Assembly (NCBI GenBank): GCA_030603365.1
Contig: JAUVXV010000002.1
Coordinates: 32,001-96,000 of the forward strand
DNA from: Candidatus Heimdallarchaeota archaeon
GTDB taxonomy: Archaea > Asgardarchaeota > Heimdallarchaeia > Heimdallarchaeales > Heimdallarchaeaceae
Length of the DNA stretch: 64,000 nt
Direction: 5' to 3'
Notes under the pieces: model-generated
The model's database searches: none
Seen by the model: only the letters and a program-made list of their open reading frames with translations
Told to the model about the DNA's origin: nothing
Position numbers and translations under genes: made by a program
Shown here: positions 57,077-57,273 of the stretch, in pieces
Layout: every line of letters begins with the position of its first letter
How positions within the stretch are numbered: the stretch's first letter is position 1

Positions 57077-57273
57077 TTTAAATATGATTCTCATAATTAT
57101 GTCTATAGAGCAGACATGGCTAACATTCATATTCGAACATCCATCGTTTTAATGTTAATCAGTATCATTACTCTCGGAAAGGTTAATTATGCTGGTCTAG
57201 GCATGGGTCTGCTCACCCACTCGTATAACTCATCACACAACACACAGGAGGGGGTGCTTTCGCAGACACTAGG
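57077..57273 (+). promoter_or_regulatory. TATA box plus candidate translational RNA switch at the operon head
   Basis: tttaaata 57077-84; GAGCAGAC-ATG (57108-18) is complementary to CAT-gg-GTCTGCTC (57202-14), which alternatively pairs with GCAGAC 57262-67. Confidence 0.45.

Follow-up and report, generated by a model that had tools for sequence, protein, structure and literature searches.

Whether the start of the gene g613 is hidden by the gene's own coding sequence, and whether such a mask could be switched, is the question that this locus raises. The window, a 64,000-nt stretch of a metagenome-assembled genome (MAG) of Candidatus Heimdallarchaeota archaeon (3.65 Mb, 32% GC), had been read from its letters alone as containing an RNA structure with two alternative folds that hide or free the first start codon of a terminal operon. 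The g613 protein has no match in Pfam or NCBIfam, and its signal anchor comprises residues ~8–21. Downstream of g613 are genes for two membrane proteins, a RadB-like ATPase, a small protein and a 1039-aa protein, and the cluster continues with a Hel308-like helicase, a RadA paralogue and a giant Ig-domain protein. The divergent neighbour on the minus strand (55713–56975) is a TM+wHTH-like gene. The gene order up420(−)/g613/g475/g218/g348 is kept across the genus.

A g613 ortholog was detected in 22 of the 24 congeneric species searched; the 16 genomes from neighbouring families gave none. The genus is represented by 25 species in the genome set, and 16 orthologs, with 37–65% amino acid identity, include the 5′ end. 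A metagenome scan yielded one more 5′-complete locus, identical to L004, and a protein search gave further orthologs (P0003–P0010) that were left out of the DNA alignment. The ortholog L008 has an in-frame TAA at codon ~69 with leader, arm and CA block intact, which could be a pseudogene or an assembly error. The positions of the features discussed below are given in Table 1.

Table 1 Features at the 5′ end of g613 and strands of the two folds, numbered by position in the window.
Feature	Position	Strand	Remarks
Conserved upstream motif CCGACA..ACTTT(C/T)G	57044–57063	+	From the alignment of 16 orthologous upstream regions
g613 TATA box TTTAAATA	57077–57084	+	Starts 39 nt before the ATG; kept in all orthologs
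Inferred 5′ leader (A)GAGCAGAC	57107–57115	+	5′ strand of the clamp helix; GAGCAGAC at 57108–57115; ATG at 57116–57118
g613 ORF, 613 aa	57116–58957	+	N-terminal signal anchor, large extracellular part, C-terminal TM helix and conserved tail
CTAG	57197–57200		Outer hairpin part
CAT-GG-GTCTGCTC	57202–57214		
Constrained stretch	57206–57259	+	Codons 31–48; arm, ACCC:GGGU/CUC:GAG hairpin, CA-rich block ACUCAUCACACA (57228–57239) and GGGGUGCUUUC (57251–57261)
Arm GUCUGCUC(A)	57207–57215	+	Codons 31–33 (GGU CUG CUC); 3′ strand of the clamp helix
CACCC	57214–57218		Hairpin part; its first C (C57214) is also the last base of the arm
CTC	57220–57222		Hairpin part
GAG	57248–57250		Hairpin part
GGGTG	57252–57256		Hairpin part
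GCAGAC	57262–57267	+	Direct repeat of the leader core; outer hairpin part, alternative partner of the arm (state 2 outer stem)
CTAG	57269–57272		Outer hairpin part

The genome has a dual initiation regime, with a leaderless class of genes marked by a peak of TATA-like 8-mers at −32 to −28 from the ATGs (counted genome-wide) and a separate class with the Shine–Dalgarno (SD) motif GGAGGUGA at −14 to −6. The TATA box of g613 lies at −39 and not at this peak, and the transcription start site (TSS) is therefore predicted at about −9 (57107, a Py–Pu step), which is the 5′ edge of the leader:arm helix. Conservation in the ortholog alignment starts exactly at −9/−8, with none just upstream. The sequence-only reading had taken the TATA at 57077–84 to place the transcript start near 57108, and judged by the TATA-to-ATG geometry of the genome this estimate appears well founded. 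With its TATA at −39, g613 would lack the leaderless arrangement (TSS at or 1–3 nt from the start codon), and its leader contains no GGAGGUGA-like motif at the SD distance (6–14 nt before the ATG).

In the cluster, the sibling promoters at 59014, 62188 and 68013 have a TATA ~6 nt closer and GACATGG at the start, and the extra 6 nt, GAGCAG, are present in the g613 leader only. The promoters of 59014 (58958–59013), 62188 (62148–62187) and the RadA paralogue (L063:5970–6012) have their TATA ~31–33 nt before the ATG and share GACATGG at the start, and they are leaderless-like. The 3′ half of the g613 leader (GACAUGG) also occurs at further promoters in the cluster, and initiation, not pairing, may be what conserves it. 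No 5′-end complementarity like that of g613 was found in the sibling genes. The motif at 57044–57063, which sits between the divergent promoters of the minus-strand neighbour and g613, reads CCGACA-N-ACTTTCG(G) and recurs upstream of the orthologs (e.g., in L013, L016 and L019). In several orthologs it takes the form of an inverted repeat, CCGA-N9-10-TCGG, and it may serve as a transcription-factor site or operator.

Every pairing element named in the sequence-only reading is at its place in the window, and RNAfold reproduces both folds. With the leader present (57108–57280), the minimum free energy (MFE) structure consisted of the leader:arm helix plus AUG:CAU (state 1), and with the leader absent (57190–57280) it was the long hairpin with its A/C-rich loop of 25 nt (state 2). 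The two folds had been described as mutually exclusive, which holds for the outer stems GUCUGC:GCAGAC and CUAG:CUAG but not for the inner ACCC:GGGU/CUC:GAG hairpin, which coexists with state 1 in RNAfold. The z-scores of the folds were −1.44 (57108–57280, with leader) and −0.63 (57190–57280, without leader). A perfect 8-nt complement of the −8 to −1 leader within +30 to +200 was found in 19 of the 2629 long ORFs of the genome, among which g613 is the most GC-rich. The single-sequence folds are not beyond chance. In clades 1–2, the two strands of the hairpin at 57214–57218 and 57252–57256 resemble an anti-SD, CACC(C), paired with an SD, GGAGG/GGGGUG. Within the coding regions of the genome, GGGTG occurs very seldom (~0.4 occurrences per position per 2629 ORFs).

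Across the 16 aligned orthologs, the leader:arm helix is conserved and covaries. RNAalifold, run on a MAFFT alignment of these sequences, returned it as the sole consensus helix, with the exchanges GC↔UG/CG, AU↔GC and GC↔AU. In the nine-pair helix, 91.7% of cells were paired, compared with 27–35% when the partner was slid by 1–3 columns, and none of 500 shuffles reached the observed pairing or covariation score. An alignment-free search placed the best complement of the 9-nt leader at +85 to +94, uniquely best in 14 of the 16 orthologs and tied in L014 and L016. The partition function gave a helix probability of at least 0.87 in 11 of the 16, at both 37 and 15 °C; the predicted probability was low in L019, and two clade-6 orthologs have an internal A·C mismatch.

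The double changes (10 cells, three pairs) are in clade 6, with leader UUGACAGAC and arm GUUUGUCGA, and a paralogue-rooted tree places this clade as sister of all other orthologs. Its arm changes are nonsynonymous (LL → LS/LP). Since the double changes fall mostly on one branch (clade 6 vs the rest), independent covariation events are few. A second, independent event was found in L012, where a leader insertion, GAGCAAGAC, is accompanied by a synonymous CUG→UUG (C→U) change in the arm; the ancestral pair persists in L011 and L039, which are closely related to L012. Of the proposed 8 bp + 3 bp pairing, the 8-bp leader:arm helix is thus the conserved part, and the AUG:CAU extension of 3 bp, not conserved in the orthologs, was rejected as a part of the clamp. 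A helix scan of −16 to +185 in the orthologs detected no other conserved helix of ≥5 bp, only weak, short G·U-rich runs. The stretch inside the clamp that encodes the signal anchor (57119–57206) forms a stable hairpin of its own in every ortholog, at non-homologous positions, and these enclosed hairpins may reflect selection for a compact enclosed domain.

Synonymous-site conservation, proposed as a check by the sequence-only reading, was strongest in the gene at codons 30–48. Between-clade pairs with the same amino acid had identical codons at a fraction of 0.86–0.92 there, compared with 0.50 gene-wide (sd 0.10, 12-codon windows), and the 12 highest of the 606 windows are all at codons 30–48. 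The constraint runs 45 nt beyond the arm and ends at codon 48; S49 and L52 are free to vary. The fixed codons are rare in the genome (CUG 6%, CUC 7%, UCG 4%, GGG 10% and GUG 10%), and codons 31–48 have a mean RSCU of 0.82 vs 1.30, the fifth lowest of 595 windows. ACUCAUCACACA and GGGGUGCUUUC are each unique in the genome, and their strong conservation is not explained by the clamp helix. A genome-wide regulon motif was rejected, as GAGCAGACATGG, ACTCATCACACA and GGGGTGCTTTC each have one exact copy in the 3.65-Mb genome. A hairpin presenting the CA tract was likewise rejected as a universal feature; it is present in clades 1, 2 and 4 and weak or absent in clades 3, 5 and 6.

Rare, structured codons could serve translation itself. 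In yeast, slowdown elements have been described downstream of the TM segment, and codons 31–48 might likewise slow the ribosome as the signal anchor emerges, aiding SRP/membrane targeting, with the leader match being incidental. The low RSCU rank fits such a co-translational pause, as does the position of the stretch 10–27 codons past the TM segment. However, codon identity is fixed beyond rarity (CUC, GGG, GUG and CAC never swap between orthologs), and the covariation with an untranslated leader is left unexplained, so we consider a pause highly unlikely. It is more unlikely still that the element has no function and that a chance complementarity is kept by protein and promoter constraints. 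The 19 comparable 8-nt matches genome-wide and the weak single-sequence z-scores speak for chance; the nonsynonymous arm changes of clade 6, which compensate changes in the leader, and the freezing of rare codons, which is the strongest in the gene, speak against it.

The same pair of sites might alternatively act as DNA: a looping repressor could use GAGCAGAC at the TSS and the inverted copy at +91 as half-sites, perhaps along with the direct copy at 57262, and the co-change of the sites would then reflect an altered protein specificity. The sites do form an inverted repeat, one copy lies over the TSS, which is a typical repressor position, and the counts of G·U and A·C in the helix do not discriminate between the plus and minus strands. 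Yet half-sites 98 bp apart within coding sequence would be atypical, the transitions that distinguish the paired sites preserve pairing in RNA (G·U) and not sequence identity, and the constraint reaches well past the arm. We regard such an operator as extremely improbable.

The orthologs were also examined for either of the two pairings, and the outcome was split: state 1 is the conserved, covarying one, whereas the outer stem of state 2 is present in 7 of the 16, in clades 1 and 6 only. The full 18-pair hairpin of state 2 was 65.9% paired vs 35–48% in slid controls, and its equilibrium probability was at most 0.03 in every ortholog. The outer-stem partner (codons 49–51) lies outside the synonymous constraint, and on the rooted tree two losses and two gains of the outer stem are equally parsimonious. 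In the window's clade, state 2 is the MFE structure only with the leader and AUG forced single-stranded. Leader (G→A), arm (C→U) and downstream copy (G→A) change together in L013 and L019, and L016 and L017 have A·C against both partners.

A two-state translational switch, in which the arm would alternate between the leader (OFF) and the long GCAGAC hairpin (ON) in response to a ligand, protein or other signal, draws on several of these observations: the window can form both folds, blocking the leader makes state 2 the MFE structure, CAGAC is kept at codons 50–51 in both clades 1 and 6, and three sites change jointly in L013 and L019. The conserved CA-rich/G-rich element beside the arm could be a binding platform for it. 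We nevertheless consider such a switch unlikely, given the nine orthologs without the outer stem, the partner codons free of synonymous constraint, the very low equilibrium probability, the ambiguous tree, and the lack of an aptamer-like junction and of an Rfam match. As the leader is transcribed first, state 1 would also be kinetically favoured over state 2.

The Rfam search gave nothing meaningful for the whole window at the gathering score or for 57050–57350 at E ≤ 10; a weak snoRNA-like match (15.9 bits, E = 8.9) lies elsewhere in the region. The ligand or ssDNA trigger that had been suggested found no evidence here, with no aptamer-like architecture and no match in Rfam. What stands of the proposed translational switch in coding sequence is a start-masking helix with compensatory changes; its two states do not (outer stem in 7/16, probability ≤0.03). 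A conserved two-state switch is thus not supported by the ortholog sequences, and state 2 can be a lineage-specific default fold of the freed arm in the window's clade, with no conserved second state. A switch confined to that lineage is conceivable.

The start region of g613 is unusually costly to open. In the window, 5.8 kcal/mol are needed to free the leader and AUG, which ranks at the 93rd percentile of a background of 350 random ORFs of the genome (mean 2.6, sd 1.8, 99th percentile 8.1 kcal/mol). The orthologs need 2.5–13.8 kcal/mol, and seven of them exceed that 99th percentile. Leaderless-type initiation in Caulobacter drops strongly with a short leader and, separately, with a high unfolding energy (PMC8459731). 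If these rules are carried over to archaea, we infer by analogy that the clamp should lower or condition g613 translation. A conserved mask of the 5′ end and start codon with this effect is the best reading of the element, and we give it about an even chance.

According to this reading, the g613 mRNA would start ~9 nt before the AUG, and the whole leader would pair with codons 31–33 in a GC-rich long-range helix of 8–9 bp, closing a domain of ~90 nt that encodes the signal anchor, with the AUG directly against the helix. In a genome with leaderless and SD-led initiation, and with no SD in the g613 leader, the clamp would thereby hide both the 5′ end and the start codon and keep the translation of g613 alone low or conditional. 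It might be opened by the pioneer ribosome, by a helicase or by a factor that binds the conserved CA-rich/G-rich element next to it. Without any such opener, a start that stays masked for good would be a strange arrangement.

The gating of a terminal operon, as proposed in the sequence-only reading, is doubtful. A separate TATA lies ~32 nt upstream of the next gene, g475 (start 59014), and is kept in all 10 orthologous loci examined, so the clamp would gate g613 alone. It probably controls this one gene and no operon.

The helix might instead act on mRNA stability, the paired 5′ terminus protecting the transcript against 5′→3′ exonucleases of the aRNase J/aCPSF2 type, with any effect on translation being secondary. 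Bacterial 5′ stem-loops offer an analogy for such protection of the 5′ end from decay. The helix starts at the inferred nucleotide 1 or 2 of the transcript and is stable and GC-rich in all clades. But a local hairpin in a longer leader would suffice for that without constraining the coding sequence, and an AUG right at the helix end must disturb initiation; we find this explanation improbable. No rival covers the leader covariation and the freezing of codon identity together as well as the RNA helix does.

Comparison of the orthologous sequences shows a real, conserved element, for which a 5′-end/start-codon clamp embedded in coding sequence is the best description; the two-state, ligand-triggered and operon-gating interpretation exceeds the evidence. 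The clamp would be a gene-specific, covariation-supported and mutable handle on 5′-end accessibility and on near-leaderless initiation in archaea, and it bears on how a conserved cluster, a candidate for DNA exchange, doses its first surface component. It also illustrates that comparison of MAGs within a genus can validate RNA structures that look like chance in one sequence. Archaea have so far yielded very few cis-acting mRNA structures, and Asgard archaea, in which translation initiation mixes leaderless, SD-led and eukaryote-like features, none to our knowledge. More tentatively, and with a rather low probability, the clamp and the adjacent invariant CA-rich/G-rich element (57215–57261) may together form a gene-specific riboregulator that answers to a protein or RNA. 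If so, Asgard archaea would gain their first described cis-regulatory mRNA switch. It would time the outermost surface component of a membrane-tethered candidate recombination/DNA-exchange cluster, and it might be opened, for example, by the cluster's own helicase or by a putative binder of the CA tract.

Among known systems, the clamp was compared with several classes of RNA element. A riboswitch aptamer has multiple helices with covarying stems and unpaired nucleotides that do not vary, and RNAalifold gave the single leader:arm helix; the mutually exclusive helices of an expression platform are not conserved, as the figures for the state 2 outer stem indicate. An RNA thermometer relies on a weak, mismatched helix that covers the start and melts at physiological temperatures, whereas the clamp has 8–9 contiguous pairs, five of them G–C, with the same helix probability at 15 and 37 °C and an opening cost of up to 13.8 kcal/mol. 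The clamp therefore resembles riboswitches and thermometers in being a cis-acting mRNA structure over the initiation region, but differs from the former by having neither aptamer architecture nor an Rfam match and from the latter by a GC-rich helix that is too stable. An antisense C/D-box sRNA was rejected (the antisense of 57231–37 is GUGAUGA, but there is no CUGA or C′ box at the expected spacing), and a BHB splice motif and a uORF from upstream ATGs were ruled out on the sequence and the ortholog alignment. No complementary trans-acting partner was found in an inverted-repeat scan of 54500–59200.

Two properties found to depress initiation in Caulobacter (PMC8459731), a short leader lacking an SD and a high unfolding energy around the 5′ AUG, would also hold for g613; unlike that work, which concerns general bacterial rules (PMC8459731), the clamp is a conserved gene-specific element. 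As in the site just inside the mRNA of the Methanococcus L1 operon, RNA structure occupies the first codons of an archaeal gene and its synonymous sites are constrained, but no rRNA mimicry or binding protein is known for the g613 clamp. The Methanococcus site is autoregulatory: it mimics rRNA and binds the operon's own product, ribosomal protein L1.

One feature of the 5′-end fold-back class, to which the hok tac/fbi and MS2 type belong, was found at g613: 5′-terminal pairing with a distant segment, with evolutionary support for it. The class is further marked by an activation step (3′ processing, delayed folding of the nascent RNA or antisense control), for which the scan of 54500–59200 offered no complementary partner. 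In the leader/SD interaction of the MS2 maturation gene and the tac/fbi fold-back of hok mRNA, starts are masked by long-distance pairing of the 5′ end. The partner in g613 differs in lying inside its own coding region, ~91 nt downstream, the leader of 8–9 nt has no SD to mask, the host is an Asgard archaeon, and the locus shows no sign of an antisense RNA, a processing step or a toxin ORF. As in MS2 and hok, the 5′-terminal nucleotides of g613 pair far downstream, the start is closed, and alternative partners of one strand are possible. The clamp would represent a type of control known from elsewhere, in a lineage whose elements of this sort have hardly been charted.
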